DNA of 64,000 bases. Source: Calditrichota bacterium (GTDB lineage: Bacteria; Zhuqueibacterota; Zhuqueibacteria; Thermofontimicrobiales; Thermofontimicrobiaceae). Shown piece after piece: positions 1-64,000 of the stretch. Below the pieces are notes generated by a model, which did not search any database, was not told the origin of the DNA, and was given only the letters and a program-made list of their open reading frames with translations. The position numbers and the translations under genes are program-made. Each line of letters begins with the position of its first letter. Positions within the stretch are counted from its first letter, which is position 1. The stretch spans positions 1,804-65,803 of the forward strand of contig JAADFU010000075.1 of NCBI GenBank assembly GCA_013152715.1. The letters are read 5' to 3'.

Positions 1-1718
1 TTTCGCAATGAATCCGGCAGCGTGGGATCGCGGTAAATATTAGCCGGTTTGAACGGATTGAAAATATTCGGATCGGTCGGATCCGATAGAATTTTCGCCC
101 GGGAGTTGAAATAGTCAAAGCGCAAGCCCAGATTCACAATCATGCTTCTATATTCAATTTTATCCTGCACGTACGCGGAAAATTCAATCGGGCGGGTGGT
201 GTAATTGTTGTGCGCCGGATTCTCCGGTCCCAGAATGGCCGTCCGAAACGGCACGACGTCAACGCCCATGGAATCCCTCAATGCCGTGAGCCAGATATCA
301 TCGAGATAAAGTTTGTGCAACCGGCCTTCCAACCCAGCCTTCAACTGATGCATTTCATTGAGCTGAATAGTATAGTCGAATTTTCCGACCCAGGTGTTTG
401 TATTGCGCTGAAAATGATGCATATTTGTCCCTTTACTCAAAAATCCGTAGCTGGGCGCAAAAAGAGAATCCGGATGGACATAGCGCGCATCGTGCGGGTC
501 TTTGTAAAGATATTCTTTGAACTGCTTGTAATAGTTGGAAATATTAATCGTGTAAAAAGATCGTTGGCTGAGCGTGTGCGTCAGGAGCGCGGACAAATTG
601 TAGCCGTCGTCAAATTTTTCCACATCGCCGGTGGGATTCCATTTGAAGCCGTGATTGTAATCGCGAAAATTCATTTTGCTTCCCAACGCGCCAATGCTGA
701 GTTTCATTGTCGGCGCCAACCGCGCCGTCACTTTCGCCTGTCCGGATAATTTGTGACGAAAATTCATCGGCACGGGTTTGCCATCACCAGGTTTACCTGA
801 TGGCAAATATTTATTCTGTCCGTACAGCCAGCCATCAGTGGAATAGTAGCGCGCCGTGACGAAAAAGTTCAATTTATCTGCAAAAGGAACAGGCCCGTCG
901 AGGCTGGTTTGTAAATTGTAATTCGCAACCGGATTATTGTTTTTAATATCGTAAAAAATTTGATTGTGCTCGCTGACGTAATCGCCGCTGTGGCCGGAAA
1001 AATTAACATGATACTTGCTGCCGCCTTCTTTGGTCACGATATTTACGATTCCCGACATCGCCTGCCCGTATTCGGCGTTGAACGTTCCGCTGATCACCTG
1101 CAACTCCTGCACCGATTCATTTTCCACCTGCACCGAAATTGCGCCGTCGTAAACATCGGTCACCGAGACGCCGTCCACCCAGTACGCCACTTCCGACGAT
1201 CTGCCGCCGCGAATGTGGATGCCGCCGTAGCGGTCAACGGTCACGCCCGATTGCAAGGCTAAAACTTCGCTCACTTCCTGCACCGGCAAATTCGCAATCT
1301 GATCGGCGTCCACGTGAGCTTCCGCTGAAGTCAGATCTTTGGTCACCAGTGGCCTCTTTGCCGTGACTACTACTTCTTTCCCCAGATCGAGAATTTCAGT
1401 GCTCAACTTAAAATTTATCGTCGTTGTCAAGTCGATGGAAACCTTCACGCCGGTAAATGTTGACTTTTGGTAACCAATCATGGAAGCGGACAATGTGTAG
1501 CTTCCGGGCGGCACATTCAAAATCACGTAGTAACCGTCCAAACTGCTTGCCGCGCCCATGGTCGTTCCTTCGATAAGCACATTCACACCGGGAAGCGGAT
1601 CTCCGGTCTGGACGTCGACAACCCGACCAGTTATTTTCCCGGTTGTTCCGGCAAAAAGATATTGGAATGACAATAGTAGTATTCCCAAAATCAGGAACAT
1701 CTTTCGTTTTAAAATCAT
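1..1718 (-). CDS. TonB-dependent outer-membrane receptor with CarboxypepD_reg-like N-terminal domain (first ~572 aa; ORF runs off the left window edge)
   Basis: Not in the ORF track because it has no stop inside the window. My translation of the minus strand from ATG 1718 (GGAGG upstream) reads MILKRKMFLILGILLLSFQYLFAGTTGKITGRVVDVQTGDPLPGVNVLIEGTTMGAASSLDGYYVILNVPPGSYTLSASMIGYQ...IHIRGGRSSEVAYWVDGVSVTDVY...ISGTFNAEYGQAMSGIVNIVTKEGG. I checked codon by codon that the frame stays open to base 1. It is colinear with, and paralogous to, the 935-aa receptor at 10840-13647. Track ORF 1408-1761 is an out-of-frame shadow. Confidence 0.85.
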   Translation of the reverse strand, partial: MILKRKMFLILGILLLSFQYLFAGTTGKITGRVVDVQTGDPLPGVNVLIEGTTMGAASSLDGYYVILNVPPGSYTLSASMIGYQKSTFTGVKVSIDLTTTINFKLSTEILDLGKEVVVTAKRPLVTKDLTSAEAHVDADQIANLPVQEVSEVLALQSGVTVDRYGGIHIRGGRSSEVAYWVDGVSVTDVYDGAISVQVENESVQELQVISGTFNAEYGQAMSGIVNIVTKEGGSKYHVNFSGHSGDYVSEHNQIFYDIKNNNPVANYNLQTSLDGPVPFADKLNFFVTARYYSTDGWLYGQNKYLPSGKPGDGKPVPMNFRHKLSGQAKVTARLAPTMKLSIGALGSKMNFRDYNHGFKWNPTGDVEKFDDGYNLSALLTHTLSQRSFYTINISNYYKQFKEYLYKDPHDARYVHPDSLFAPSYGFLSKGTNMHHFQRNTNTWVGKFDYTIQLNEMHQLKAGLEGRLHKLYLDDIWLTALRDSMGVDVVPFRTAILGPENPAHNNYTTRPIEFSAYVQDKIEYRSMIVNLGLRFDYFNSRAKILSDPTDPNIFNPFKPANIYRDPTLPDSLR

Positions 1719-2544: not shown

Positions 2545-2564
2545 CAATTTTGCTCCACTAACGC

Positions 2565-4271
2565 TCACTCGGAAAACACTGTCCAACGTAATTTTTCTTT
2601 GTCAATCCGAATATTAGCTTGCTGGTGTAATTGTTCAACAAAATTATGCAGGCGAATTCGCCGCCATTTCCAGAGCAATTCAGTGGCAATTTGCTCTTTT
2701 GCTTCTTCAAATGTTTTTGGACGCGCCGGTTTTTTTTTAATCATTTGCACGATGGCGTAAAATCCTTCCACCGGAAAGGGTCCGGCAATCTCGCCGGGGT
2801 TCAATTGGAAAATGGAATCTGCCAGAGACCCAAATCGCGACCGGGGAGAAAATCCGAGTTCGCCGCCGCGCTCTGCCGCCCATTTGCGAAGCGAATATTT
2901 TTTAGACAATCCCGCAAAAGACTCGCCATTGCGGACTTTTTGCAATAATCTTCGCGCCGCACCCTCCTCGCCGACGAGAATTTCCCGCACATTCGCCTGC
3001 TCCTGAAAAAAATAGCCGTCCGCATTCTTCTCGTAAGCTTCTTTCAAAGCCTCTGTGGGCACAGTCACGGTGTCCGAAATCACGCGCAGCATTCTGCCGA
3101 CAATAGCGCCGTCAATGGCGTGGGCAATTTCTTTCTGCAGTTTTTTGTCTTCTTTCACTCCTGATTTTTCAGCCGCTTTTAACAATTCCTGCCGTACGCG
3201 CAACCCGACAACGAATTGTTTCAAATCATCTGACGTTTCAATTCGCCGTTGCTGCCGCGGAGAAGTGTGCTTTGCCTGCTCCAGAAAATCCGCCACCGTC
3301 CATTTCCCGCCTTTGAAATTTACCAAAGTTTCTTCGGCGACATCTGCGAGAGCCACCGACAACGACCGCTCTTCCGAATCAAGATTTCGCGACGTCCTTT
3401 TGTTAAATTCTTTCATTCTGGAAAAAATAAATTGCACTAACTTTTGGTTGAATTCCGGCCTCAAATTTTCTGCCAATTTTTTTCCCAATTTTTGTGCGTA
3501 CTGAATATTTTTCTCCAGCCGAATTTCTTTTTCCAGTTTAGGTTTCGCCGCAATGAAATCAGATTCGCTGGCAATGGGAATGAAAATTCTGTCTTCCAAT
3601 TTGATAATGCTGTAACCGTATCTGGTTTTCACCGGACGGGAAATTTCGCCGACTTTCAGGGAAAAAGCCGCCTTCTCAAATGCCGGATCCATTTCTCCTT
3701 TTCCGAAATAACCGAGATAACCGCCGTTTTCCGCCAGCGTCGCATCCTGAAAAGTAGCATGAGCAAGTTCAGAAAAATCTTCCCCGTTTTGCAAACGCGC
3801 GTACAATTCTTCCGCCTGTTCACGGGTGCGCGCGTACAGATGCCGGGCAGCCACTTTTTGTTTGGAAAGGCGGAATTGTTTGGCAAGTTCCTTCTCGCTC
3901 ACGGAAACCGTGTCAAAGAACATCTTTTTGCGGTAAGTGTCCAGATAATATTGCGCGCGAATGCTCTCTGCTATCCGCCGAAAATCAGCGTCGCTGTCCC
4001 AGCCCCGGCGGTGGAAATCCTGAATCAGAAGCTGCTCGTTGATCATTTGATTGAGCAAATCCTCGCGCGTCTGGAGATTATCTTTGATGCCGGTAATGCG
4101 CGAAAAAAAGTTCAGCCGTCTGCCAAAGTCAGCCACAGAGATTACGTCGTTATTGACTTGCGCCAAAGGGACTGATTTTTTATTTTTTGAACAAAAAACA
4201 AACGCAGTGATCAGTAAAATTTCGCTGATCAAAAAAAATTTGCTCGCCCTTGGAAAAGAAATACTCTTCAT
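2565..4271 (-). CDS. PpiC/parvulin-type peptidyl-prolyl isomerase, SurA/PpiD-like envelope chaperone
   Basis: Lipoprotein-like leader (LLITAFVFCSKN) and a rotamase core RHLYARTREQAEELYARLQNGEDFSELA...GGYLGYFGKGEMDPAFEKAAFSLKVGEISRPVKTRYGYSIIKLEDR. The ATG at 4271 overlaps the GH13 stop (TGATG); the track start at 4274 is a TTG one codon upstream. Paralogue of 24017-25771. Confidence 0.8.
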   Translation of the reverse strand: MKSISFPRASKFFLISEILLITAFVFCSKNKKSVPLAQVNNDVISVADFGRRLNFFSRITGIKDNLQTREDLLNQMINEQLLIQDFHRRGWDSDADFRRIAESIRAQYYLDTYRKKMFFDTVSVSEKELAKQFRLSKQKVAARHLYARTREQAEELYARLQNGEDFSELAHATFQDATLAENGGYLGYFGKGEMDPAFEKAAFSLKVGEISRPVKTRYGYSIIKLEDRIFIPIASESDFIAAKPKLEKEIRLEKNIQYAQKLGKKLAENLRPEFNQKLVQFIFSRMKEFNKRTSRNLDSEERSLSVALADVAEETLVNFKGGKWTVADFLEQAKHTSPRQQRRIETSDDLKQFVVGLRVRQELLKAAEKSGVKEDKKLQKEIAHAIDGAIVGRMLRVISDTVTVPTEALKEAYEKNADGYFFQEQANVREILVGEEGAARRLLQKVRNGESFAGLSKKYSLRKWAAERGGELGFSPRSRFGSLADSIFQLNPGEIAGPFPVEGFYAIVQMIKKKPARPKTFEEAKEQIATELLWKWRRIRLHNFVEQLHQQANIRIDKEKLRWTVFSE

Positions 4272-6121
4272 CAATGGTTCTCCTGCGCGAGTCTCGTTTC
4301 CATCCCCGGAATCAAAATCACGCCGGACTTGCTGTCCAGAGAAATTTCCAATTGGTCATCCACTCCGATGAATTGATCGCCGGAAATTAAATCCATCCAG
4401 TACTTTCCCGGCAAATTCAATCGCACGTGTTGGATTCTTTCGGCATTATTGACGGCAACCACAATTTTTTCAGTTTCTGTAGCGCGTTCAAAAACAAAAA
4501 TATCTCTGTCGCCATCCGCCAAAATTGTCCGGTAATTTCCCAGCATCAACGCCGAATGTTGTCGGCGAATTTTTATCAGCCCTTGATACCAGCGAAACAA
4601 ATCTTCGTTGAACACATTTTTATCGCGCGGCCGCTCCAGCCCAAAGGGGTGACTGACTTCGTCCTCGTAAGTCATGTCCTGCCAGAGCATCGGTTTCCGC
4701 TCATCCGGATCGCTGGCGCCCCACATACCGGCTTCGTCGCCGTAAAAAATCATCGGCGCGCCGATGTAAGTCATCTGAAAAAGTACGATTAGTTTTTGAA
4801 TTTTAATTTCATCGGCGTGAGGTTTGCGCACATTGTAATTTTTATTTGACTGCAAAGTATTATTGTGCCCGTAAATTCTGTCCGGATTGACAATCATCGA
4901 ACCGAGTCGATCCGTGTCGTGGCTATCCATGAGATTTTGCAGCACAAAATTGACCTCAGCCGGGTAGTCTTTCCGAATCTGTTCCAATTCCTGATCAAAA
5001 GCCGAAGCGGTTATTTTTTTATTTTTGTTGATGAAAAATTTAGTGACTGCGTTGGCAAACCGGTAATTCATTACCGCGTCAAACATATCGCCCTGAAGCC
5101 AGCCCGCGGCATTGAACATTTTCACAGGGAATTTTTCCCACCAAACTTCTCCGCTGAGGTACGCCTGCGGATTAACGGAACGAACGAATTTGCGAAATTT
5201 CACCCACGAAGGTCTGGTTACTTTTTCCGCCACATCAAGCCGCCAGCCGTCGATCCCATCGGAGGGATCACCGTCATTGTTCGGATCCATCCAGCGATGA
5301 ATCGCCGCCCGCATGTAGCGCCAGGCGCCGCGGTCAAATCCGCTTTTGCCCTCGCGGATTTCCGGAAGGCTGCGCACGTTTGCCCAGCACTCATAATCGA
5401 ACTCGTCTTCCGGCGTATTCGGATCATCCCAGGATTTGACGGTGAACCAATTTTTGTATTTTGATTTTTGCTGATTTTTTTTCAAATCCTCAAACGCGAA
5501 AAATTTTACCCCGACATGATTAAAAACGCCGTCGATGATCACTTTAATCCCGCGTTTGTGACATTCATCAATTAATTTGAGAAACAATTTATCCGCCGCC
5601 GTCCATTCCCACGTAGAAGGATCATCGGGGATTTCGCGACGCATAATTTTTTTGTCGCCATCCGGTTCAGGACCAAAATTGTCATCAATATGATGGTAAC
5701 ACACAGCATCGTATTTGTGCAAAGACGGCGCTTCGAACAGCGGATTGAAATAAATGGCATTGATGCCCAAATTTTGCAGATAATCCAATTTATTCAAGAC
5801 ACCCTGCAAATCGCCGCCGTAGCGCCGACGCTGAGCATGATAGTAAAATCCCTTTCCGTCCTGCTCCCAGGGCTGCAATTTGTACCAATCGGAAGTCCAG
5901 GGAACAATCCGAATTTCCCGATCGTCGCCAAAAGGCCAGGCGCCCTGAATATCTGCCGTGGACGGATCGTTGGACGGATCGCCGTTGCGGAATCTTTCCG
6001 GAAAAATCTGATACCAGACCACAGTTTTTGCCCACTGCGGAACCTCGTAATTTATTTCTTTCTTACTGCAAAATGAAAATGACAAAATCAATAATCCAAT
6101 AATAACTTTTTTCAAATGCAT
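4271..6121 (-). CDS. GH13 alpha-amylase-family enzyme (neopullulanase/cyclomaltodextrinase-like), probable lipoprotein
   Basis: All four GH13 conserved regions are present: VIIDGVFNHVG, DGWRLDVAEK, GEVWWE, NLMDSHDTDR. I place the start at ATG 6121 (MHLKKVIIGLLILSFSFCSKKE, signal plus Cys) with GGAG upstream. The track's GTG at 6148 lies inside the 6136-6168 hairpin. Confidence 0.88.
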   Translation of the reverse strand: MHLKKVIIGLLILSFSFCSKKEINYEVPQWAKTVVWYQIFPERFRNGDPSNDPSTADIQGAWPFGDDREIRIVPWTSDWYKLQPWEQDGKGFYYHAQRRRYGGDLQGVLNKLDYLQNLGINAIYFNPLFEAPSLHKYDAVCYHHIDDNFGPEPDGDKKIMRREIPDDPSTWEWTAADKLFLKLIDECHKRGIKVIIDGVFNHVGVKFFAFEDLKKNQQKSKYKNWFTVKSWDDPNTPEDEFDYECWANVRSLPEIREGKSGFDRGAWRYMRAAIHRWMDPNNDGDPSDGIDGWRLDVAEKVTRPSWVKFRKFVRSVNPQAYLSGEVWWEKFPVKMFNAAGWLQGDMFDAVMNYRFANAVTKFFINKNKKITASAFDQELEQIRKDYPAEVNFVLQNLMDSHDTDRLGSMIVNPDRIYGHNNTLQSNKNYNVRKPHADEIKIQKLIVLFQMTYIGAPMIFYGDEAGMWGASDPDERKPMLWQDMTYEDEVSHPFGLERPRDKNVFNEDLFRWYQGLIKIRRQHSALMLGNYRTILADGDRDIFVFERATETEKIVVAVNNAERIQHVRLNLPGKYWMDLISGDQFIGVDDQLEISLDSKSGVILIPGMETRLAQENH

Positions 6122-6135
6122 TTCTCCATTCCTCA

Positions 6136-6168
6136 AGGTGTAGTCCACTTCAGAAGTGGACTACACCT
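6136..6168 (-). repeat. 33-nt perfect hairpin (16-bp stem) immediately 5' of the GH13 Shine-Dalgarno; copy 1 of a two-member family
   Basis: aggtgtagtccacttc-a-gaagtggactacacct is a perfect inverted repeat, 14 nt upstream of ATG 6121. A related copy lies at 17823-17855 in the same position relative to another start codon. Confidence 0.75.
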
Positions 6169-6211
6169 AAAATAGCTCACCTAAATATTTCGTGGTTAAA
6201 AAAAATTATTT

Positions 6212-7228
6212 TTAAAATTTCAACCCAACCGAAAACTGCTGCACATCTTTCAATACCCCGAACTGATGAAACGCATAATTCACTTTGACGCTCAGTCCGC
6301 GGACCAGGGGATAGGAAAATCCCACGCCAAGAGACACCCCCTCTTCGGAGTCTTTGGCAAAAAGCGTTTTGTAGCCGCCGCTCAGTGAAAATATTTCGTT
6401 GAAAGTGTAAATTGCGCCAAAATTGAGATATTCCACATCATCGTTGGGGTGCAGCGCATCGACGGCAAAAATCAGATTGCTGTTGCCGCGGCCTTTCAAC
6501 ACGTCCATGGACACTCCGACGCGAAACATGAGCGGCAAATCGTAACTTTCCGTCTTCAGTTCCGCATTGATATTTTCGTTATTCCCGGAAATGAGCGGAT
6601 TGACATCGTACTGAATGAGCAAATCTCTGCCACTCATGCGCATTTTTGTACCAAAGTTGGAAATGGACATGCCGATCTTTAATCCATTGAACTGGGTGGT
6701 AAACAGCGTTCCCAGATCGAACGCGATGCCCGTAGCAGAAGAATTGTAAATGTACTCATGGATGTATTTTAAATTAACTCCGATGCGAAAGCGATCCGTC
6801 AGCGCGCGAGCGTACGCCAGACCGAAAGCATAGCTGCCTGCGGAAAATTTTTCTCCGTTGCCCATGGGATAGTCGATTGTTGTGCGCTCCATATCGCCCA
6901 TGCTGAGAAAAGTCGCGTTGACGCCGATCGTTCCGAAACTGAGCGGCATGACCACGCCGGCATAATTAAAGCTGATATCGGCAATCCAGTTGTTGTAGCT
7001 AAAAACAGCTTCGTTTTTGTTGAGCAGCGCCATGCCCGCCGGATTCCAGTACATGGCCGTGGCGTCGTCGGCAACGGACACAAAAGCACCGCCCATGCCG
7101 ACTGCTCTGCCGCCGACATCGATGTTCAAAAAACCCGCCGCCGTCGTGCCTACTTTTGTGACTTGTTCCTGCGCCAGCGCCGCCTGAATCAAGACCATTA
7201 TTGTCAACATCACGTATCTGAGTTTCAT
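6212..7228 (-). CDS. PorV/PorQ-family outer-membrane beta-barrel protein (T9SS-associated)
   Basis: Signal peptide MKLRYVMLTIMVLIQAALAQ followed by the family hallmark GTTAAGFLNIDVGGRAVGMGGAFVSVADDATAMYWNPAGMALL. Alternating beta-strand pattern and a C-terminal aromatic residue (GLKF). GGGAG upstream of the ATG. Confidence 0.75.
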   Translation of the reverse strand: MKLRYVMLTIMVLIQAALAQEQVTKVGTTAAGFLNIDVGGRAVGMGGAFVSVADDATAMYWNPAGMALLNKNEAVFSYNNWIADISFNYAGVVMPLSFGTIGVNATFLSMGDMERTTIDYPMGNGEKFSAGSYAFGLAYARALTDRFRIGVNLKYIHEYIYNSSATGIAFDLGTLFTTQFNGLKIGMSISNFGTKMRMSGRDLLIQYDVNPLISGNNENINAELKTESYDLPLMFRVGVSMDVLKGRGNSNLIFAVDALHPNDDVEYLNFGAIYTFNEIFSLSGGYKTLFAKDSEEGVSLGVGFSYPLVRGLSVKVNYAFHQFGVLKDVQQFSVGLKF

Positions 7229-7290
7229 GGATATTCTCCCTTGTAATGTATTTACAAAACTTTGGAGATTTTTAATTCAATTTTTGAAAA

Positions 7291-10200
7291 CTATTTGATC
7301 ACCGCAAACTTTCCGATCTTCTGCCCCCATTTCCCGGCATCAATATGATAGACATAAACGCCGTAGGAAATGTCGAGATTATCTCTGGTCAGCATGTTCC
7401 AGATCTCAGTCCCGTTCCAGATTTGCGGATCGCCCGCGCCAATGTAGGCATCGTGCTCAATAGTGTTGATCAACTGACCGCGCACGTTAAAAATGCGAAT
7501 CGTACATTTGGGCGGCAGATTAATGAAATGCAACTCTCTGGGGCCATGACCGCTGGAATAGGGATTTAACGGTTCCCAGCTATTGGTCACAATGTACGGA
7601 TTGGGAACAACACGAATTTTGTCTAAATCTGACTTTGCCTGTTCATCGTCAATTTTTTCCTTGTGCGTGGTAAATTCCAGCGTCATGGAAGAGAGGAATG
7701 GTTTGGACAAAATCACGTAAGCTGTGTCCCCGGCTGCCGGAGCCTTGAGCCGGGCGTCGTAAACTGTTTTGAATTCCCAGGTGACGATCAACGAGTCGTT
7801 TTCGTCTCTTTCCAGTAAAATTATTAAATCCTGATCGTTGTAATCAGATGAAAAAACTCCGTCATCGCCATGGACTTCCCAAAAAGCGAAATCAATGAAT
7901 CGGGCAGTTGACATATTGTAAACGCGAAAATTCACCGGCTTTGGCATTAACTCAACGCGCGTAACCTTAAGATATTTCGACGTGTCCATACCTACTTCGC
8001 CGAAAATAATCTTGTAATCGGAGGGATACATTGTACCGGTGACAAATCCAACCTTAAAAACTTTGAAACTCATGGTGTACAAACTGTCCCGACTCCAGTG
8101 GCTTTTGCTGCGATCAATTTGAATGAATTTGCTGTTGTGTGTCGACAATTGAAAGCCGTCAATGATCGGTTGTTCGTCCAGGGGACTTAACTTCCGCGAA
8201 CGTTCGATTAATGTATCGATTGTTCCCTCGCTTTCAAAAGTAACGTCGGCGAGAGTCCAGCATTTCGTAGAAAGCGTATCGCCCTCGGCAACGCTTCCCG
8301 AACGAACCGAATCTTCAAAAGTAATGCGATAATGATGATTATCTTTCACCATCGCCGGGTCGACAATTTCGTAGGCGAAATATCCGGAAGGTTTCAGCGC
8401 AGACACTGCCGCAATCGTGTCAATATCCGCCGCAACAAATCCTGCCGACGGCGATTCGGGCTGCACAATGGCGACATTCCTGCCTTTGGAAATATTCCCG
8501 GACGCATCGATGGAAATCTGAATGGCAGATTCAGTGGGAGGAATCTGCTTGTCAGGACTCGGATCGCCGTGGTCGTAAGCAGTAATGGCGTAATAATAAG
8601 TGTAGCCATTCTTCACATCCGTGTCCACAAAGCTGTGCTTGAGCCCGGAATTGTTTCCCAGGTAAAATTGCACGCCTTTCACCGGCACCACCTGATAGTC
8701 AGTCGTGGAATTGTCCGGATTTCTGTGCGTGTAAGTGAATCCCTGATATTCATTCACTAAATCAAATTGCGCAATCGGCTCCATGAAAGTTTCCGAGCCA
8801 AAAGCGTCGGTAATTTGCGTCATATCTTTGAACTGAGTATCGGTGGAACGATAAATGCGATAGCCTTCAAAATCTTTTCCGGTGATCGGATCTTCTGACT
8901 CTTCAGCAATAGAATCCCAGTACAACGTCACTTTTCCGTCTCCGGGAACAGCCGTCAGAGTCGGCGCGTAGGGCGCTTTGGCGAAATTGTAATTTTCATT
9001 ATACGCCTTGCTCACCCACTCTTTGTTGCGATAAATATCGCTGTTTTTGTCGTGTCGCGGGCCATCACCGAAAATCATGGCAATGGAAAATCGTTCCGTC
9101 TGTCCGACTTTCAGCGGGAAATAGCCAGAGCCAAATTGAAAATCGGCATCTTTATTTTCAATAACTTCCGCCTTCAAATAGCCGGGCTGCATGTATTTCC
9201 AGATTTTGTTATCATCGTAAAGCGGAATGGCATCGAACGGATAAAAAATGTAGAGAGAAGTCAAGCCAATCATGTCAGACTCATCAATGTCAGTTTTGTC
9301 GATGTGTGGTTCTCCGGGAAGATCCGTGCCCCTGCCGCTGGTGGGAACGCCGTCTCCTTCGCCGGGATCGCCGGTATTGGCTTTTCCGTCCAGGCCAACA
9401 TCGTCAGCCAGCGGGTCCCAATCACCGTCGTTGTCGATGCCGTCATCGCGGCGTTCGTCAATCAACGGATTGGATAGACCGGCGCCCAGAATGTAGTCTT
9501 TGTACGGCAGGCCAATGTACAAATAGACATGCGTTGTGTCCGGGGGCGTGCCAATGACTGCACCGTTATTTTCATCGATGATGCCGTTCAAATTATTGTC
9601 GATATTGTCATCGGGAATTTCGCGAACAGTTTGATTCGGCAAAACAGTGTACGTTTTTCCGTTATGGCGATAAGTAATACCGTCCGCCGGCATCGTTGTT
9701 ACAGTTCGTTCGTAAGTTTCATAATCAATCAAAACGATCTGTTCGCCGACCTGATAACTTCTCGGGGCAAACATGTCCTCGGAGATTGTGGGACCGGCAA
9801 AGGCCAAACCGTCGCCATCGTTGTCAATTCCATCGTAGGGATTGCCCGGGCTTTCCAGAAATGCGTAACCAAGAACGCCGACGGGTCCCCAACCACCACT
9901 GCCAATTCCGTCGTAGTCATAGCTGATTGCCAAATCTTCCAACAAATCATATTCCGCAGAATCATCGTTAAAATCGCCCTGCATGGTACGCGTGTTTCCG
10001 AGCATATTTCCGATCATCATGCCGAAAATCATTTTCGTGTAATTCGTTGTTCCGATATTTGTAATGTCAAACAGCCAGAAAAGCGCATCTTCAACCAATG
10101 CATTCGACCACTGAAATCCGCGCACGGTCGCTCTCAGCCCCAGACCGCGACGAGTCGTATCTGTGCTGTCGGGATAAAACGGATATTCAGCGTCCTGATA

Positions 10201-10821
10201 ATCGTCCATCACGTAAAAGCTCTCCTGATCCGCGTTGAACACATTTTTTCCGAAATAGCCATTCCAAGCAGCCACATTGGGATCGCCGTCTTCGGCGTCA
10301 TTTCGCCAGCCGGGATCAACCATATCGCCCATTTTGTCAGGCCAAAAAGCAGGCCAGGTCGCTCGATATTGCGGACTGGCGTTGAGGTCGGTCATGGCGA
10401 CGTCATTGCTGTCGGGATTGGCGTAGCCAGGCAGCGGCATCCAGGTGAACCACTCGCCGTTGGGACCAATCTCGCCGCGTCTGGCGCTGCCGGTTCCTTT
10501 CAGCGGACCGTCCGGCGTGATTACGATTGGCTGCCCGTTTGCGCCGAGCGAATCGATGATCGTGCCCACGATTGTACAGGCATCACCCACGTAAATGTGT
10601 CCCGAATTTTTAGGCCACTCGCCGCCGAAGTCGTTGGGATTGTCCACTTTCCTGCCAAAAAATCCGGTATTGTAAAAAGTTGTTTTTATTTGATTCCCGG
10701 AATGAAGTCCGCTGCGAACTTCGCCAGGATCGCCGTGTGGAGTAATTTGAGCAAAAGCGAGGTAAGGCGTGAATGCCCAGATCGCCATTAAGCCAGTGAG
10801 AAAACGTTTCACATATCGCAT
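7291..10821 (-). CDS. large secreted surface protein with Ca-binding DxDxDG repeats, an Fn3-like module and a T9SS C-terminal sorting domain
   Basis: Signal peptide (LMAIWAFTPYLAFAQ). Aspartate-rich repeats (DGIDNDGDGL, DDNIDNNLNGIIDENNG, DDGIDNDGDWDPLADDVGLDGKANTGDPGEGDG). Fn3-like segment (GDGKVTLYWDSIAEESEDPITGKDFEGYRIYRSTD). C-terminus VVPNPYIV...TIRIFNVRGQLINTIEHD...YGVYVYHIDAGKWGQKIGKFAVIK resembles the FlgD-Ig/T9SS type sorting domain. Confidence 0.8.
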   Translation of the reverse strand: MRYVKRFLTGLMAIWAFTPYLAFAQITPHGDPGEVRSGLHSGNQIKTTFYNTGFFGRKVDNPNDFGGEWPKNSGHIYVGDACTIVGTIIDSLGANGQPIVITPDGPLKGTGSARRGEIGPNGEWFTWMPLPGYANPDSNDVAMTDLNASPQYRATWPAFWPDKMGDMVDPGWRNDAEDGDPNVAAWNGYFGKNVFNADQESFYVMDDYQDAEYPFYPDSTDTTRRGLGLRATVRGFQWSNALVEDALFWLFDITNIGTTNYTKMIFGMMIGNMLGNTRTMQGDFNDDSAEYDLLEDLAISYDYDGIGSGGWGPVGVLGYAFLESPGNPYDGIDNDGDGLAFAGPTISEDMFAPRSYQVGEQIVLIDYETYERTVTTMPADGITYRHNGKTYTVLPNQTVREIPDDNIDNNLNGIIDENNGAVIGTPPDTTHVYLYIGLPYKDYILGAGLSNPLIDERRDDGIDNDGDWDPLADDVGLDGKANTGDPGEGDGVPTSGRGTDLPGEPHIDKTDIDESDMIGLTSLYIFYPFDAIPLYDDNKIWKYMQPGYLKAEVIENKDADFQFGSGYFPLKVGQTERFSIAMIFGDGPRHDKNSDIYRNKEWVSKAYNENYNFAKAPYAPTLTAVPGDGKVTLYWDSIAEESEDPITGKDFEGYRIYRSTDTQFKDMTQITDAFGSETFMEPIAQFDLVNEYQGFTYTHRNPDNSTTDYQVVPVKGVQFYLGNNSGLKHSFVDTDVKNGYTYYYAITAYDHGDPSPDKQIPPTESAIQISIDASGNISKGRNVAIVQPESPSAGFVAADIDTIAAVSALKPSGYFAYEIVDPAMVKDNHHYRITFEDSVRSGSVAEGDTLSTKCWTLADVTFESEGTIDTLIERSRKLSPLDEQPIIDGFQLSTHNSKFIQIDRSKSHWSRDSLYTMSFKVFKVGFVTGTMYPSDYKIIFGEVGMDTSKYLKVTRVELMPKPVNFRVYNMSTARFIDFAFWEVHGDDGVFSSDYNDQDLIILLERDENDSLIVTWEFKTVYDARLKAPAAGDTAYVILSKPFLSSMTLEFTTHKEKIDDEQAKSDLDKIRVVPNPYIVTNSWEPLNPYSSGHGPRELHFINLPPKCTIRIFNVRGQLINTIEHDAYIGAGDPQIWNGTEIWNMLTRDNLDISYGVYVYHIDAGKWGQKIGKFAVIK

Positions 10822-10839
10822 ACGTTACCTCTATTTTCA

Positions 10840-13647
10840 TTAAAAATTAAAAGCCAAACCGAGTTGCACCTGTCTCGGCTCTGTGTACCATTCGGGATGT
10901 GTGAAAAATTCTTCCAGAGAGCCCACTCGTTTCGGATCTCCTGAAATCCCCAGCGCGTCCAGGGTGTAATCCGGCGAGCCGGTGTCTGTCCAGACCCAGG
11001 TCGCATTGGGCGTATCGAAAATATTGTAAATATTGACAAAAATATTGGCATTGAAATTGGAAATTTTAATGGCATAATTAAAATACATATCAAACGAATA
11101 TTGATTGGGCAGACGATCGCTATTATCGCGCAGCGCATTGTAAACGCCGCCGCCAGTGACAGTGCCCTTGGGGAAACGAGGCGTGTAAGGCATGCCGCTC
11201 CAAAATCTGCCGAGAAATGAAACGCGCCATTTTTGCGTGCCGACGCCGAGAGAGCCGTTCAGTGTGTGCCGGCGATCCCAACTCATGGGAATCAACTGCC
11301 GCTGCGGCTCGCGCTGAGCATTTTCAGCAAAATAGGCATCCGCCGGATTGGAATGACTGCCATCGGCAATCATAAATGAGTAATCAACGCTGGCGGAAAA
11401 ATAATGAGAATAGCGCTTATTCAACGACAGCGTGAAACCGCGCACGTTGGAATAATCTTTATTTTCAAAACGGGAATATTTGACGCTGCCGTAGGTGTCG
11501 ATGAGCGGGCTGGTTCCCACCCAATCGCGCACGTCACGGTAAAACATGGTCACATCAATTCCCACGTCATCAGCGATTTGCTGCTGCAAGCCAATTTCGT
11601 ACATGACGGTCTTCTGCGGCCGCAAATCCGCGTTTCCGATGATGCGCGACCCCTCGGCTTCGGTGACTTTAAAATCGGGGCTGGAATAAAGATAATTAAA
11701 AAGCGGAATCTGGAAAAAATGACCGTAGGAAAAATGAATCACGCCGCGCGACGTGATCGGATAAGCGATGCCCAGACGCGGACTGACCTTGTATTTTGCT
11801 GTTGCGTCTTTGTACCAAAATTTTCTCCGTTCTGCGAGGGGAATAATATTAGACGCATCGTCAAGTTGCGGCTCGGGCAGATCCGGATCATAATATTTGT
11901 GCGCAGCAAGCTGCGGCTGAAAAATGTTCGGATCTTTGGGATCAGCCAGAACAACGCCATCGGGCTCGAAATAGTCAAACCGAACCCCAATGTTCACGAT
12001 CATATCTTTGAGTTCAATTTTATCCTGCAAATACGCGGCAAACTCCAGCGGGCGATGCGTGTATTTATCGTGGTAGGGCGTCGTTACATCCGGAACATAG
12101 GGCTGAAAAGGTACAATTTCCGTATTTCCTTTACGCTTCGGCTGGATATTGAACCATTCCAGATTTAGCTCATGCCGCCGCAATTCTATCCCTGCTTTGA
12201 ATTGGTGCGCTTTATTCCATTGATTCACCAGATCAAATTTCACAATACGATAGCCGGTGCTGCGAAAAAAATGATCCATTTTCGTGCCGGCGCGTTTGAA
12301 GCTGTAAGAAACCGGATCGCGCAGAGAATCAGGATGCACGTAGCCGAGCGGGCTATTGGGATCGATGATAAACGTATTTCCGCTCGTATCCGCCGGGTTG
12401 GGAATGTAACGCACGGTTTGATAGGGATTTTTGAAAACGTATTGCTGGTAGTCAGTGTAAAAATCTGTAAATTTTAGTTCGTAAAATGTTCTCGGTGAAA
12501 GTACGTGATTGAGACTGACGATGTGAGTTCTGCCCGTCTCAAATCGCTCGTAGTCGCCTTCGGGATTGTATTTGAACGAATGGTCGTAATTGCGAAATTT
12601 GTTATCGTTCCAGAACAAGCCATAAGTCAATTTCATCATTGACGTCAAGTTGTAACTCACTTTAATTTGAGAAGAAATTTTTCGAAATGGATTGAGAGAA
12701 ACCCACTCGTCAGTAGAGCGATAGCCTGTGGGGAGATATCGTTTCCTGCCGTAAAACCAACCTTCATTTTTAAAATAGCGTATCATGGAGAAAAAATGTA
12801 ATTTTGATTTCAGAAAAGGAATCGGGCCGCTCAAATTCCCCTGCAAATTAGCAACGGACAATGGGTTGATGTAATCCAGATGGTCGAAAATATTCGTTCT
12901 GTCGGTCACATAATCGCCCATGTAATACCGGATTTCACCGTGATAATCCTTGCCGCCTTCTTTGGTAACGATATTCACGATACCGGACATTGCCTGACCG
13001 TATTCCGCATTAAAAGTTCCGCTCACGACCTGCAATTCCTGAATGGACGCATTTTCCACTTGCACGCCCAAATTTCCCGAATAAACGTCCGTGGCAGCGA
13101 TGCCGTCGATCCAATATGCCACTTCTCCGGAACGACCGCCACGCACGTGGAGTCCGCCCACAGGGTCTTTCACCAGACCGGCTTGCAACTCCAGCACATC
13201 GCCCATCTCCTGTACCGGCAGACCTTTGATTTCGTCAGCGCTTACAGCGGAAAGGGATGACGTCATGTCTTTCTGAACAATTTCGCGTTCAGCGACCACA
13301 GTCACCTCGCCCCCTAAATCCACAACTTGAGTACGAAGGCTAAAATTCACTGTCGTCGTCAAATCAATAGACACGCGCACTTTTTCCATTCGCTGCGCCT
13401 GATAACCGATCATACTCGCCTTTAAAGTGTACGTCCCGGGAGGAATGTTGATGATGACAAAATAGCCTTCCAGATCGCTCGCCGCGCCCATTGTCGTGCC
13501 TTCCATAATAATATTGGCACCAGGCAGCGGATCGCCGGTCTCGGCATCTTTCACATAGCCGGTAATCTTCCCGGTAATTCCCGCCATCGCCGCAGTTGTG
13601 AAAAACAAAAAACAAACGATAAAAAAGAACTTTCCTGCAATTTTCAT
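10840..13647 (-). CDS. TonB-dependent outer-membrane receptor with CarboxypepD_reg-like N-terminal domain
   Basis: Signal peptide; GKITGYVKDAETGDPLPGANIIMEGTTMGAASDLEGYFVIINIPPGTYTLKASMIGYQ (CarboxypepD_reg-like); plug motifs (LHVRGGRSGEVAYWIDG, SGTFNAEYGQAMSGIVNIVTKEGG); long beta-barrel ending in the aromatic residue LGLAFNF. Confidence 0.9.
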   Translation of the reverse strand: MKIAGKFFFIVCFLFFTTAAMAGITGKITGYVKDAETGDPLPGANIIMEGTTMGAASDLEGYFVIINIPPGTYTLKASMIGYQAQRMEKVRVSIDLTTTVNFSLRTQVVDLGGEVTVVAEREIVQKDMTSSLSAVSADEIKGLPVQEMGDVLELQAGLVKDPVGGLHVRGGRSGEVAYWIDGIAATDVYSGNLGVQVENASIQELQVVSGTFNAEYGQAMSGIVNIVTKEGGKDYHGEIRYYMGDYVTDRTNIFDHLDYINPLSVANLQGNLSGPIPFLKSKLHFFSMIRYFKNEGWFYGRKRYLPTGYRSTDEWVSLNPFRKISSQIKVSYNLTSMMKLTYGLFWNDNKFRNYDHSFKYNPEGDYERFETGRTHIVSLNHVLSPRTFYELKFTDFYTDYQQYVFKNPYQTVRYIPNPADTSGNTFIIDPNSPLGYVHPDSLRDPVSYSFKRAGTKMDHFFRSTGYRIVKFDLVNQWNKAHQFKAGIELRRHELNLEWFNIQPKRKGNTEIVPFQPYVPDVTTPYHDKYTHRPLEFAAYLQDKIELKDMIVNIGVRFDYFEPDGVVLADPKDPNIFQPQLAAHKYYDPDLPEPQLDDASNIIPLAERRKFWYKDATAKYKVSPRLGIAYPITSRGVIHFSYGHFFQIPLFNYLYSSPDFKVTEAEGSRIIGNADLRPQKTVMYEIGLQQQIADDVGIDVTMFYRDVRDWVGTSPLIDTYGSVKYSRFENKDYSNVRGFTLSLNKRYSHYFSASVDYSFMIADGSHSNPADAYFAENAQREPQRQLIPMSWDRRHTLNGSLGVGTQKWRVSFLGRFWSGMPYTPRFPKGTVTGGGVYNALRDNSDRLPNQYSFDMYFNYAIKISNFNANIFVNIYNIFDTPNATWVWTDTGSPDYTLDALGISGDPKRVGSLEEFFTHPEWYTEPRQVQLGLAFNF

Positions 13648-13698
13648 GACCTGTCCCTTTCGAAGAAAATTTTATATTTTTTTAAGGACAATCACTAA

Positions 13699-14754
13699 TT
13701 AACCGGCTTGTTTCAATTCCGGCCTTGTACCGCAAGTATCTCGAATGATAAGTTTGGGATGGAGCAATTTATGGAACACACCTTTATGCTCCACGCCGTT
13801 GTTGATTTTTCCGATGAGATGATCGACAGCAATTTCCCCCATTTCACGCATGGGCTGTTTCATCGTCGTCAATCCAAGATATTCTGATAATTCGATTCCA
13901 TCAAATCCGATGATTGCAATATCTTTGGGGATTCTCAAACGATTACGTTTTACCTCTTGCATTGCGCCAGCCGCCTGAATGTCAGAAGCGGCAAAAATCG
14001 CCGTCGGTCTGTCCTCGGCCAAAGAAAGAATCTGCCGCACTCCTTCTATTCCTGCCTGCTTATTAAAACCATCGTTGTGATAGATTTCAGGATCGGCATC
14101 GTCATTCACATGAAAAATCGCTCTTTTATCGGGAATCAAATTATTATCGCCAAGCGCCTGCATGAAACCTTCGAGCCGTGTTTTTGCCGGATTGCTGCGC
14201 AAATTGCCATTGATCATACCAATTTTTTTGTGACCTAACTTTATTAGATGCTCAGTTGCCTGAAAAGCACCTTCTTTATTTTCTACACAAATGGAATCCA
14301 GCAGCGGATGGTAAGCATCAACAAGGATTATTGGCAATTTAGACTGGACAAACTTTTCCGCCAGAGAATCGTTGATTGCCATCGACGAAAGCAGCACGCC
14401 ATCCACGCGACGTTCGCGCAGCGCTTTTTTCAGAAATTGATCTTTTCTTTCAATTTGATCCACACTGTACAAAATCAAATCATAGCCGTACTGACTGAGC
14501 GCCTGCTGCACGCCATTCAGCATTTCAAAATAAAAATAGCCTGTAAAAAACGGTACAATACAGGCTATGGTGTTCGTCCTTCTGCGTGCCAATCCCTGAG
14601 CCATGACCGACGGCTGATATTTTAACTCCTTAATCACCCGCAGCACTTTTTCTCTGGTCTTCGGCGAAATCTGAGGGCTGTCGTTGATCACCCGGGAAAC
14701 AGTACCAATACCCACGCCGGCTTTTCTGGCAACATCGTAAATAGTAACTCTCAT
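13699..14754 (-). CDS. LacI-family transcriptional regulator
   Basis: N-terminal HTH MRVTIYDVARKAGVGIGTVSRVINDSPQISPKTREKVLRVIKELKYQPS followed by a periplasmic-binding-protein-like sugar-binding fold. ATG at 14754; the track start at 14757 is a TTG one codon upstream. Confidence 0.9.
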   Translation of the reverse strand: MRVTIYDVARKAGVGIGTVSRVINDSPQISPKTREKVLRVIKELKYQPSVMAQGLARRRTNTIACIVPFFTGYFYFEMLNGVQQALSQYGYDLILYSVDQIERKDQFLKKALRERRVDGVLLSSMAINDSLAEKFVQSKLPIILVDAYHPLLDSICVENKEGAFQATEHLIKLGHKKIGMINGNLRSNPAKTRLEGFMQALGDNNLIPDKRAIFHVNDDADPEIYHNDGFNKQAGIEGVRQILSLAEDRPTAIFAASDIQAAGAMQEVKRNRLRIPKDIAIIGFDGIELSEYLGLTTMKQPMREMGEIAVDHLIGKINNGVEHKGVFHKLLHPKLIIRDTCGTRPELKQAG

Positions 14755-14774
14755 CAAAATTTATTCCCATTTTA

Positions 14775-14788
14775 TGGAAGCGGTTCCA
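14775..14788. promoter_or_regulatory. candidate LacI-family operator (14-bp near-palindrome TGGAAGCGGTTCCA)
   Basis: Fits the generic LacI/CcpA-type half-site arrangement TGnAAnCGnTTnCA, with 12 of 14 positions symmetric. It lies 21 nt upstream of the lacI-family ATG and just downstream of the predicted -10 box. I found no second copy in the window. Confidence 0.55.
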
Positions 14789-14797
14789 AAGATGTCT

Positions 14798-14827
14798 ATA
14801 ATATAAAAATTTTTACAAAGATGTCAA
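14798..14827 (-). promoter_or_regulatory. sigma70-like promoter for the LacI/TonB-receptor operon
   Basis: The minus strand reads TTGACA (14827-14822), an 18-nt spacer, then TATTAT (14803-14798), followed by the operator. Confidence 0.45.
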
Positions 14828-15029
14828 GGATTTTTTTACATTTTTGAAAAAAATTTGACGGAGGGGAAAAATTGGGAGAGATCAGTTTGATGGGGAAATG
14901 TTTTTTCGATGGCAGGAAAACTTTTATCATGTAATCTGTGCCAAGTCAACTTATTTAATATCCGCGAAAATCCGCCTGATCCGCGTGTTTCCGTGTGCCA
15001 TTCTTTTAATCCAATTTTCAGAAAATACC

Positions 15030-15473
15030 TCATGACGAGCTAAAATAATCTCCTTTTTTCATTTTTTCTCTGATGATTTGGTTCCTTTTCTCGATAAAAG
15101 GCTTCCAATCCAGATAATCGCGAACCGTAATTTCCCAGAAATGTGCCCTTGCTTTTTTGTCTCGTTCAAAAATTAACTTCCCGTCGCGAATGACGCGATA
15201 ATTGAGATCAAGCGGCGTTTCATTCAAAAAGACAAGATCGATCTGCTCCGCGCCCAACAGATTCATCAACGCAGCTAATTCTTTGAGCCTCAACCTGAAC
15301 AAATCTTCCGCTATTTTCGTCTGATCGATATAGACTGCAATATCGATGTCGCTCAATGGCGTAAATTTCCCTCTCGCCATGGAACCAAAAAGGTAAGCAA
15401 AAGCAATGTAATCTTTGCCGGCAAAATATTTTTTTAGTTTCTGTTCAATTTTTGAAAATGGAAGATTTTTCAT
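15030..15473 (-). CDS. MntA-like minimal nucleotidyltransferase (type VII antitoxin-like)
   Basis: NTase signature FAYLFGSMARGKFTPLSDIDIAVY (GS-x9-DxD). I prefer ATG 15473 (MKNLPFSKIEQKLKKYF...) over the track's GTG at 15530. Confidence 0.7.
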   Translation of the reverse strand: MKNLPFSKIEQKLKKYFAGKDYIAFAYLFGSMARGKFTPLSDIDIAVYIDQTKIAEDLFRLRLKELAALMNLLGAEQIDLVFLNETPLDLNYRVIRDGKLIFERDKKARAHFWEITVRDYLDWKPFIEKRNQIIREKMKKGDYFSSS

Positions 15474-15641
15474 TTCAACATCATCAAATTTGTATTTAAT
15501 CGAAAAATTAGTACACCCAATTTCTGGCACATCATTTTGCTTGCTATAGAGAAGCTAACAAATTATTTTTACGAAATCAAGTATTTTTTGAAAACAAAAG
15601 AAAAGGAAAAGTTCTCATTTCTCATTACGATTTTTCATTTC

Positions 15642-17804: not shown

Positions 17805-17822
17805 TGAGACGCTCCGTTTTTT

Positions 17823-62902: not shown

Positions 62903-64000
62903 CTATTCCCCGACCGGCACAATCATCATCGCCAGCCCATTATTCGCTGCTACATTTCTTCGAATAATATGATTCTTTTCAACATCCATTTTTTGGATGC
63001 GGACGTGTGTTCTGCTCGGGAAAGCCGCATCGTCAGAATAGATTGACGCTGCATATTTTACGCCCGGCTTCAAAAATGATAGTTTGACTTCAAAAACACG
63101 TGGTTCTTCTCCGTTCACGCAACCGACAAACCAGTTTTCTCCGCTGCGTCGGGCAACCGTAGCGTATTTTCCGATTTCACCGGAGAGAAACTTTGTGTCA
63201 TCCCAAACAGTCGGGACTTCATCAAAAAATTCCAATTCTGGAGTTTCACTGATTACTTTTTCCAAATTTCCCGCCGGTAGTCCGCGCCGCGGCGGACTAT
63301 CATACCAGTAGAGAAATTGCCACGGGCTATACAGACAAACAGCTTTCGCCAACTGCGATGCATGAGACCCCATTCTTTCATCAACTCGTTTGGAAAAATA
63401 ACAGTTCGTATTATCTCCGGCGCCGGCAATCATTCGCGTGAAAAGTGTGATCAACGTATGCTCGTTGGTCGGCGCTTCCTCGTCGCCGCGAATGCCCTCG
63501 ACAGTCATCAAATTGGGGTAGGTGCGGGAGTAACCTGTGGGACGATATTCGTCGTGAATGTCCACCATCAACTTATTTTCCGCAGCTTTGCGGATCGCCT
63601 CATGCAGCCAGCGCGTCCAATATTGAGAGCCCACGTTCACAAAACCGTATTTCACCCCCGAAATACCCCATTTTCGATACAACGGCAAAATTTCATCCAA
63701 CTGTTTTTCCATCGCTCGGCGGTTCACATAAAGAATAATACCCACGCCTTTTTTGTGCGCATAGTTCACAACTTCAGCCAGATCAAGGGGGCCCGGCGAA
63801 CGTTTGGGATCGACGGTTACCGTTGTGGCGTCAGACGAATCGTCATACTCGTGGCCATACCAGCCGGCATCAAATTCCACAAACTGAAGATTATGTTTCG
63901 CGGCGAAATCCACGCAGGCTTTTCCGCCAGCCGTCGTCAAGGTAATTTCCCGAATGACTTTTCCGGGGCGAATCCAGGACGTATCTTCAATCTTGCACGG
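62903..64000 (-). CDS. GH97-family glycoside hydrolase (alpha-glucosidase/alpha-galactosidase type), C-terminal ~365 aa; ORF runs off the right edge
   Basis: The track's M at 63940 is an internal TTG. The frame stays open to base 64000 (my translation: PCKIEDTSWIRPGKVIREITLTTAGGKA...). GH97-like catalytic-barrel segments: FVEFDAGWYG, GIILYVNRRA, YRKWGISGVKYGFV, MVDIHDEYRPTGYSRTYPNLMTVEGIRGDE. Confidence 0.8.
   Translation of the reverse strand, partial: PCKIEDTSWIRPGKVIREITLTTAGGKACVDFAAKHNLQFVEFDAGWYGHEYDDSSDATTVTVDPKRSPGPLDLAEVVNYAHKKGVGIILYVNRRAMEKQLDEILPLYRKWGISGVKYGFVNVGSQYWTRWLHEAIRKAAENKLMVDIHDEYRPTGYSRTYPNLMTVEGIRGDEEAPTNEHTLITLFTRMIAGAGDNTNCYFSKRVDERMGSHASQLAKAVCLYSPWQFLYWYDSPPRRGLPAGNLEKVISETPELEFFDEVPTVWDDTKFLSGEIGKYATVARRSGENWFVGCVNGEEPRVFEVKLSFLKPGVKYAASIYSDDAAFPSRTHVRIQKMDVEKNHIIRRNVAANNGLAMMIVPVGE

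Follow-up and report, generated by a model that had tools for sequence, protein, structure and literature searches.

Gene content of the locus

We analysed a 64,000-nucleotide stretch of contig JAADFU010000075.1 from a Calditrichota bacterium (positions 1,804 to 65,803), referred to below as the window, in which a TonB-dependent receptor, a 1176-aa secreted protein that we call BIG and an outer-membrane barrel of the PorV/PorQ family are encoded one after another. Along the minus strand the genes run in the order LacI-family regulator, TonB receptor 1, BIG, barrel, glycoside hydrolase family 13 (GH13) enzyme, PpiC-domain protein and receptor 2 (Table 1). All genes of the locus lie on this strand and are tightly packed, with short intergenic gaps: the start codon of BIG falls 18 nt after the stop codon of receptor 1, and the ATG of the PpiC gene shares one base with the stop codon of the GH13 gene (TGATG).

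A previous, sequence-only reading of this DNA had described a co-oriented, tightly packed gene string, and the gene identities obtained with Pfam and NCBIfam agree with that description, as do the coordinates. The 18-nt spacing ahead of the gene for the 1176-aa protein, a PorV/PorQ-like barrel encoded after that gene, a promoter and an operator in the lacI leader, a paralogous TonB receptor from position 1718 and a GH97 gene at the far end of the window (present as a fragment) were all found where that reading had placed them. It had also claimed that a SusD-like gene is lacking, and no gene of the SusD/RagB family was found among the annotated open reading frames (ORFs) of the window.

Table 1. 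Positions of the genes, control elements and protein regions discussed in the text, in window coordinates.
Feature	Coordinates	Strand	Remarks
Sigma-70-like promoter, TTGACA-16-TATATT	14800..14827	minus	upstream of lacI; consensus match only
Putative LacI-type operator palindrome, TGGAACCGCTTCCA	14775..14788		between -10 element and lacI start
LacI-family repressor	13699..14757	minus	Pfam LacI helix-turn-helix (HTH) and Peripla_BP_1/3; likely ATG 14754
TonB-dependent receptor 1, 935 aa	10840..13647	minus	Pfam CarbopepD_reg_2, Plug, OMP_b-brl_4
BIG, 1176 aa	7291..10821	minus	predicted secreted, all-beta; family without annotation
BIG N-terminal beta-rich region, residues about 25-615	8977..10749	minus	conserved; invariant Asp/Asn-rich loops
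BIG Fn3-like domain, residues about 616-785	8467..8976	minus	motif DFEGYRIYRS...YYYAITAYD
BIG variable domain, residues 790-1062	7636..8454	minus	candidate specificity domain
BIG C-terminal domain of type IX secretion system (T9SS) type, residues about 1065-1176	7294..7629	minus	divergent; conserved insertion
PorV/PorQ-family outer-membrane barrel, 338 aa	6212..7228	minus	NF033709
GH13 alpha-glucan hydrolase with signal peptide	4271..6121	minus	Pfam Alpha-amylase and Malt_amylase_C
SurA-like periplasmic chaperone, two PpiC domains	2565..4271	minus	Pfam Rotamase (two) and SurA_N
TonB-dependent receptor 2, 5' part	1..1718	minus	from translation; gene continues beyond window
GH97 fragment	62903..63940		far end of window

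Receptor 1 scores 75 bits against the SusC/RagA model TIGR04056, for which the cutoff is 368, and matches it over residues 27-244 only. By this profile comparison it is a TonB-dependent transporter of a non-SusC kind. A sequence search of the PDB with receptor 1 found no close solved relative. Receptor 2, whose gene starts exactly at position 1718, is 50% identical to receptor 1 over 573 aa.

The promoter-like sequence upstream of lacI agrees with the consensus at 11 of 12 positions and is the top match of its kind in window positions 1-15700, and the palindrome TGGAACCGCTTCCA that follows it is present in a single copy in the window. A generalised form of the palindrome, TGNAANCGNTTNCA, has nine matches in 1.02 Mb of related loci, versus approximately one expected. 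The motif lies just 5' of lacI in L027, L037, L012, L058 and L074 and at the lacI start in L011, and two further matches lie upstream of PpiC-receptor or GH13-receptor strings. The regulator has the HTH_LacI domain and the periplasmic-binding-protein fold of a LacI family member, and its control region contains a palindrome of the TGNAANCGNTTNCA type; in an NCBIfam scan it remained below every equivalog cutoff. Comparative support for an autoregulated, putative LacI operator is good. A scan for terminators found none that was convincing within the gene string, and shuffled sequences yielded at least as many sites overall.

The GH13 protein matches the Alpha-amylase domain (PF00128) with 161 bits and gives partial matches to maltodextrin glucosidase and cyclomaltodextrinase models. 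The four conserved regions of GH13 enzymes are readable in its translation (DGVFNH, GWRLDVAEK, GEVWWE and DSHDTDR), and the protein is probably a periplasmic, neopullulanase/cyclomaltodextrinase-like enzyme. It had earlier been called a GH13 lipoprotein; the family assignment stands, and lipoprotein status is uncertain, with a Cys after the signal peptide but a Phe at the -1 position. The GH13 and lacI genes within the operon supply the co-localised carbohydrate-active enzyme (CAZyme) and dedicated regulator expected of polysaccharide utilisation loci (PULs).

BIG and its PorV-family barrel

As read from the translation without a predictor, BIG carries a Sec-type signal peptide, MRYVKRFLTGLMAIWAFTPYLAFA, which ends in AFA and is followed by Q, and there is no lipobox cysteine. 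Searches of Pfam and NCBIfam with BIG found no family match, and a PDB sequence search gave only chance-level matches. With a word-indexed search we obtained over 3,400 full-length homologues from Fidelibacterota, Calditrichaeota, KSB1 and unclassified metagenome-assembled genomes (MAGs), several of them sharing one contig; every homologue bears the name 'hypothetical'. When a profile of the family was searched against 1.84 billion cluster representatives, 1,171 clusters at 50% identity passed E≤1e-30, and 4,081 passed E≤1e-10. A Pfam scan of 42 diverse members of the family yielded nothing beyond weak matches to T9SS-tail models.

An AlphaFold2 (AF2) model of BIG is nearly all beta, with a predicted local distance difference test score (pLDDT) of 75 and a predicted TM-score (pTM) of 0.63. 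The N-terminal region contains invariant loops, DGIDNDGDG, DDGIDNDGDWD and DKTDIDESD among them. There is one strict DxDxDG motif, at residue 333, and residues 466-518 have low pLDDT yet approximately 80% conservation. Judged from motif and invariance only, the Asp/Asn-rich loops are consistent with Ca2+ dependence. In a BIG paralogue encoded on the closest syntenic contig (BIG2, L083:21065-23500), the region matching residues ~340-450 is replaced by extra Asp/Asn-rich loops of the 'DDNGNGLIDEN' type, and the number of putative Ca-binding repeats therefore varies between paralogues.

Whole-chain Foldseek searches with BIG returned the fibronectin type III (FnIII) arrays of insulin and IGF1 receptors as top matches (E 5e-5 to 1e-3), owing to the Fn3-like region at residues ~616-785; no Pfam fn3 match was found in BIG. 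The same searches indicated weak likeness, with low TM-scores, to the beta-supersandwich domains of GH94 and YidC P1, and a match to PorZ with an E value of 9.6e-5 but a TM-score of ~0.1. These fold matches are only suggestive and do not settle the function of BIG.

The domain that precedes the C-terminal tail is the least conserved in the family, with residues 841-1020 being the most variable. Modelled alone, residues 790-1062 give a pLDDT of 94.7 and a pTM of 0.87, and they may represent a new fold. Matches of this domain to TbpB, lectins and GFP-like proteins were discarded at probabilities below 0.1.

The C-terminal domain, for which the AF2 model predicts seven strands, ranks with the best-conserved parts of BIG. 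Unlike canonical tails, it has a conserved insertion of ~20 aa after the first strand (NSWEPxNPYSxGRGPRELHF). Sub-threshold matches to CHU_C were obtained for 14 of 15 BIG family members (best E 4.8e-5) and to Por_Secre_tail for eight of 15 (best E 0.021). When the BIG tail was aligned by hhalign to canonical type-A tails of neighbouring genes, the probability was 95.6% and the E value 1.1e-8. By profile-profile comparison, then, the C-terminus of BIG is homologous to T9SS tails and is probably a divergent T9SS sorting domain. The Ca-binding Asp repeats, Fn3 domain and T9SS tail assigned to the protein in the sequence-only reading thus reach no Pfam or NCBIfam threshold, and they have support from motif, fold and profile-profile comparison, respectively.

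The barrel encoded next to BIG matches the PorV/PorQ family model NF033709 over its full length (residues 28-338) with 208 bits, against a cutoff of 90. It falls below the equivalog cutoffs for PorV (NF033710; 80 versus 250 bits), PorQ (NF033711; 98 versus 220) and PorV2 (79 versus 325), and as judged by these scores it is a distinct subfamily of the PorV/PorQ family, being neither a PorV nor a PorQ equivalog. Its only solved relative is PorV of F. johnsoniae (6h3i_F, E 1.3e-7). The Toluene_X/FadL model gives 29.5 bits (cutoff 29.7), and PorV is itself a FadL homologue (PMC12578637), such that the barrel could be imagined as a channel of FadL type that passes a small hydrophobic or amphipathic solute and has no part in the localisation of BIG. 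We consider this extremely improbable, given a PorV-family score far above the cutoff, the strict adjacency of the barrel to a protein with a T9SS-type tail and the carbohydrate orientation of the loci described below.

Conservation and setting of the cassette

A locus scan restricted to one genome per species returned 80 related loci from Stahlbacteria, Calditrichota, KSB1, Marinimicrobia/Neomarinimicrobiota, Ignavibacteria, Rhodothermales, Balneolaceae and Eisenbacteria. Among the carriers of the cassette are an ignavibacterial MAG assigned to Melioribacter roseus (L034) and MAGs of Caldithrix and Rhodothermales. A receptor homologue is encoded directly upstream of BIG in all 62 loci with enough flanking sequence, and a PorV-like barrel adjoins BIG in 62 of 63. 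Pairwise-identity matrices computed for the 43 complete triads are correlated between receptor and BIG (r = 0.88), receptor and barrel (0.86), and BIG and barrel (0.82), which indicates that the three genes diverge together as a unit. The triad of predicted outer-membrane components, among which the beta-rich BIG proteins are ~1,150 aa long, is thus conserved across several phyla.

Arrangements other than the common one also occur. In L006, L034 and L077 the order is receptor-barrel-BIG instead of receptor-BIG-barrel, with PpiC downstream in L006 and L077. Three to four receptor-BIG(-barrel) cassettes are found in tandem on one contig, L001 (1-23378), where the barrels are ~62% identical to that of the window, compared with ~50% for BIG.

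The domain content of genes around the cassette was counted in 94 randomly sampled genes of the related loci. Canonical Por_Secre_tail domains are present in 28 of these, followed by CBM20 (9), FlgD_ig (9) and Alpha-amylase (8), and further neighbours include X25, CBM48, CBM9, GH26, glucoamylase-like proteins and sodium:solute symporters. After a Calditrichaeota orthologue come genes for a SusE/F-like CBM20 protein, which bears a T9SS tail, and for a sugar ABC transporter. More distant cassettes adjoin GH16 enzymes, a glucoamylase-like enzyme of PF10091 and CBM9 proteins. Judging from the GH13, LacI and CBM20 genes, the locus in the window and its orthologues are of an alpha-glucan type. The cassette itself is generic, as the variety of enzymes around it indicates.

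This variety bears on the idea that BIG is an independent surface enzyme or adhesin that is co-regulated with the transporter and does not dock to it. The N-terminal region has many invariant acidic and aromatic residues from which an active site or a binding platform could be built, and there is the weak fold likeness to the supersandwich domains of glycoside phosphorylases. However, the supersandwich matches have low TM-scores and concern non-catalytic domains, and the occurrence of the BIG family in loci for different glycans (GH13/CBM20, GH16, GH26, CBM9, glucoamylase-like) argues against a single catalytic specificity. The linkage of BIG to the receptor is also tighter than that of any CAZyme of these loci. 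An independent enzyme or adhesin therefore appears very unlikely to us.

The closest syntenic contig, L083, carries the order LacI-receptor-BIG-barrel-GH13-PpiC-receptor 2-BIG2, with PpiC running directly into receptor 2 and BIG2 beginning 24 nt after receptor 2 and being 39% identical to BIG (E 1e-159). From this order, a second BIG gene and a barrel gene, and not a susD gene, are expected just past the edge of the window. The possibility that a susD gene lies immediately outside the window, raised by the sequence-only reading, is thus answered on this contig, where a BIG paralogue follows receptor 2 instead. The L083 order also makes the PpiC gene probably the leader of the second receptor module. 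Its overlap with the GH13 stop codon (TGATG) had been described correctly, while its description as a chaperone for GH13 gives way to this more likely assignment: a GH13-specific role was rejected because a PpiC homologue lies immediately 5' of a receptor in at least 14 related loci.

The frequent presence of a SurA-like chaperone gene beside the cassette recalls biogenesis systems, and one may ask whether BIG, the barrel and PpiC, instead of binding ligands, are dedicated to the assembly or structure of the large transporter. The model for such a canopy, taken by analogy, would be the β-barrel assembly machinery (BAM) of Bacteroidota with its surface dome and its FadL-like barrel BamG; in that machinery, the loops of a FadL-like barrel hold a surface protein in place (PMC12578637). 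The barrel shows a weak match to BamG (E 1.2e-5), and the failure to recognise a carbohydrate-binding module (CBM) in BIG would fit a role of this sort. The BamG match amounts to 24.5 bits with a cutoff of 250, whereas the PorV-family model gives 208 bits, and PpiC is present in only a minority of the loci. A hypervariable domain would be unexpected in a generic chaperone, and the possession of its own co-diverging BIG and barrel by each receptor paralogue fits stoichiometric partners better. An assembly role is, in our estimation, distinctly unlikely.

Between PpiC and receptor 2 lies a minus-strand ORF (1891-2586, probable start 2544) for a protein of ~217 aa with one N-terminal transmembrane helix, for which no family match was found. 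The closest relatives, L005 and L083, pass straight from PpiC to the receptor without a gene in the gap, so this ORF looks like a lineage-specific insertion or a spurious frame in an intergenic region of ~850 nt.

On the other side of the operon, a block at 15030-23745 separates lacI from a second PpiC gene (PpiC2, 24017-25771) and from Mla genes (25785-29516). The block encodes a Pol-beta-type nucleotidyltransferase (15030-15530), a penicillin amidase (15642-17879), a Tll0287-like histidine kinase (18258-19640) and a 1344-aa multi-PAS hybrid kinase (19711-23745). It looks like an insertion, since PpiC and a single gene for a 309-aa protein directly precede lacI in the relative L084. The remaining genes of the window are housekeeping genes (Mla, trmD, rimM, ffh, rnc and fab genes) and signalling genes.

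Putative surface proteins are also encoded elsewhere in the window. A plus-strand gene (46502-50491) specifies a protein of 1329 aa that has eight DUF11 repeats and ends in a FlgD_ig-type tail, and it is overlapped by a gene on the same strand (50461-53595) for a 1044-aa protein with a weak OmpA-like match; these two may be another T9SS-linked pair of surface protein and anchor. A minus-strand gene (57196-59085) encodes a 629-aa protein that has four CarboxypepD_reg repeats and whose C-terminal domain is of the FlgD_ig / Por_Secre_tail / CHU_C kind; the organism thus has genes for typical cargo bearing tails of T9SS type. An Rfam search found no RNA families in the window. A search of sequencing runs found a single DNA run, from a hydrothermal vent, with 8% of the sampled words, and no RNA runs.

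A proposed importer and its relation to known systems

We propose that the locus, in a bacterium of the Fibrobacterota-Chlorobiota-Bacteroidota (FCB) group that stands outside the classical Bacteroidia, encodes a Sus-like importer of alpha-glucans in which BIG is exported by the T9SS, is tethered to its own barrel and acts as a partner of the transporter, a proposal on which our confidence is evenly divided. Sec would carry BIG across the inner membrane, and the T9SS would carry it across the outer one. The C-terminal domain of BIG would then be kept and bound non-covalently to the adjacent PorV-like barrel, which would serve as the membrane anchor, and BIG would become the extracellular partner of the adjacent TonB transporter. 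The conserved N-terminal, Asp-rich and Fn3 parts might make generic contacts, with the variable domain before the tail conferring substrate specificity. In the periplasm, GH13 would cut the imported malto-oligosaccharides, and LacI, bound to the palindrome that separates the promoter from the lacI start codon, would repress the operon. This tethered arrangement is the most economical one because BIG adjoins a barrel that is neither PorV nor PorQ, has a conserved and modified tail and is adjacent to a TonB transporter.

Precedents for such an anchor exist within the T9SS. PorV binds the C-terminal domains of cargo proteins, PorU and PorZ retain their C-terminal domains bound to PorV and PorQ, respectively, and type-B cargo requires cognate PorP/SprF barrels whose genes adjoin its own (PMC10202324). 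Cognate PorV-like barrels have been proposed to shield C-terminal domains from cleavage (PMC10202324). By analogy, a C-terminal domain that is retained on the cognate barrel is at least as likely for BIG as hand-over by PorV followed by covalent anchoring.

In a classical T9SS route, the barrel would instead be a locus-specific shuttle from which BIG is handed to the PorU sortase, and the C-terminal domain would be cleaved. BIG would end up covalently attached to anionic lipopolysaccharide or released, and it would still capture glycans for the transporter. The homology of its tail to canonical type-A tails, which are normally cleaved, is in keeping with this route, as are the membership of the barrel in the PorV/PorQ family and the canonical tails on many neighbouring cargo proteins. 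However, the canonical cargo of these same loci has no private barrel, and a general PorV should suffice for it. The insertion and the high conservation of the BIG tail fit a permanent interface better than a disposable signal, and known cargo that is encoded with a cognate PorV-like barrel retains its C-terminal domain (PMC10202324). The classical route is thus unlikely, and we prefer the tethered arrangement.

Several observations weigh against a tethered, glycan-capturing BIG. The tail falls below all curated hidden Markov model thresholds, for type A (PF18962/TIGR04183) as well as type B (PF13585). Neither a CBM nor a known lid fold was recognised in BIG with Pfam, NCBIfam or Foldseek; structure prediction, which the sequence-only reading had proposed as a way to look for CBM-like or beta-propeller modules, led to the recognition of no CBM fold. 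A Foldseek search of residues 790-1062 against the PDB gave no significant match (best E 0.019, probability <0.1), and glycan binding by BIG is without homology support. The co-divergence of the three genes can be explained by cassette inheritance alone. Moreover, the second cassette on L001 has no barrel of its own, so that barrels are not strictly one-to-one with BIG proteins, which suggests that paralogous BIG proteins can share barrels. The suggestion that BIG is a T9SS-anchored substitute for SusD accordingly stands in part: the triad is conserved, the tail is homologous to T9SS tails and the loci are PUL-like, but a binding or docking module was not recognised.

SusC/SusD pairs are the accepted signature of PULs, and PUL predictors rely on them. 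Like SusC/SusD PULs, the locus combines a regulator, a TonB transporter whose N-terminal domain is CarboxypepD_reg-like, a neighbouring gene that encodes a secreted partner, and a GH13 enzyme that is probably periplasmic. Surface CBM20 starch-binding proteins in orthologous loci, and several paralogous cassettes per genome with different CAZymes, extend the resemblance. In contrast, the transporter fails the SusC/RagA model and a SusD/RagB gene was not found. BIG is twice the size of SusD, all-beta and not a lipoprotein, and a PorV-family barrel of its own goes with it. T9SS tails replace lipid anchors on the accessory binding proteins and enzymes. The locus is therefore PUL-like in its working and not a SusC/SusD PUL; in kind it would be a TonB transporter with a surface partner.

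Alternate, non-SusD lipoprotein lids have been proposed to serve non-SusC transporters of Bacteroides (Price, Deutschbauer and Arkin, preprint, 10.1101/2023.03.17.533168). There, as here, a non-SusC TonB transporter has a conserved adjacent non-SusD partner, which is deduced from conserved proximity. Those partners are surface lipoproteins and concern smaller substrates, whereas BIG has no lipobox, has a T9SS-type tail and comes with a third component, the barrel.

The PorZ-PorQ, PorU-PorV and SprB-SprF pairs resemble BIG and its barrel in that cargo with a C-terminal domain of T9SS type is paired with a PorV-like barrel. In type-B pairs such as SprB-SprF the barrel gene lies beside the cargo gene, as it does in nearly all loci here, and CHU_C, a type-B model, is the most frequent sub-threshold match of the BIG tail. 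The retained domain of the known pairs is a non-covalent anchor (PMC10202324), and retention in BIG would follow by analogy. Unlike these pairs, the barrel described here is not an equivalog of PorV, PorQ or PorV2, and the BIG-barrel pair is part of a TonB nutrient-uptake cassette that is multiplied within genomes.

TbpA/TbpB pairs and the carbohydrate utilisation containing TonB-dependent receptor (CUT) loci of Xanthomonas (PMC1790865) likewise join a TonB receptor to dedicated genes for substrate capture or degradation, without SusD. TbpB differs in being a lipoprotein for an iron carrier, and the fold matches between BIG and TbpB are non-significant (probability <0.1). The CUT loci have neither a conserved large partner nor a barrel.

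No description of the cassette was found in open-access papers and preprints, and an earlier description elsewhere is possible; the genome papers on Caldithrix and Melioribacter do not mention it. We tentatively suggest, with somewhat more doubt than conviction, that the triad adds a third architecture to those of TonB-dependent nutrient capture, in which a T9SS-delivered partner sits on a private barrel, that it is the main glycan importer of several phyla within the FCB group, and that it includes a new glycan-binding fold. Such an architecture would be a three-component outer-membrane 'utilisome' that stands beside SusD-type lids and TbpB-type surface lipoproteins. The phyla concerned would be the poorly studied Calditrichota, KSB1, Marinimicrobia/Fidelibacterota, Ignavibacteria and Rhodothermia.

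To our knowledge, many FCB lineages with a high abundance in oceans, sediments, hot springs and hydrothermal systems possess few or no SusD genes and many CAZymes. If the proposal is correct, the SusD-independent cassette would provide a marker for the glycan-uptake loci of these SusD-poor lineages. The idea is testable in cultivable organisms, as the cassette is carried by the Melioribacter roseus MAG and by MAGs of Ignavibacteria, Caldithrix and Rhodothermales. The cassette would also give a role to a family of more than 1,000 clusters at 50% identity that is annotated only as 'hypothetical', and PorV-family barrels, so far secretion shuttles, would gain a further function as permanent anchors within complexes for nutrient uptake.

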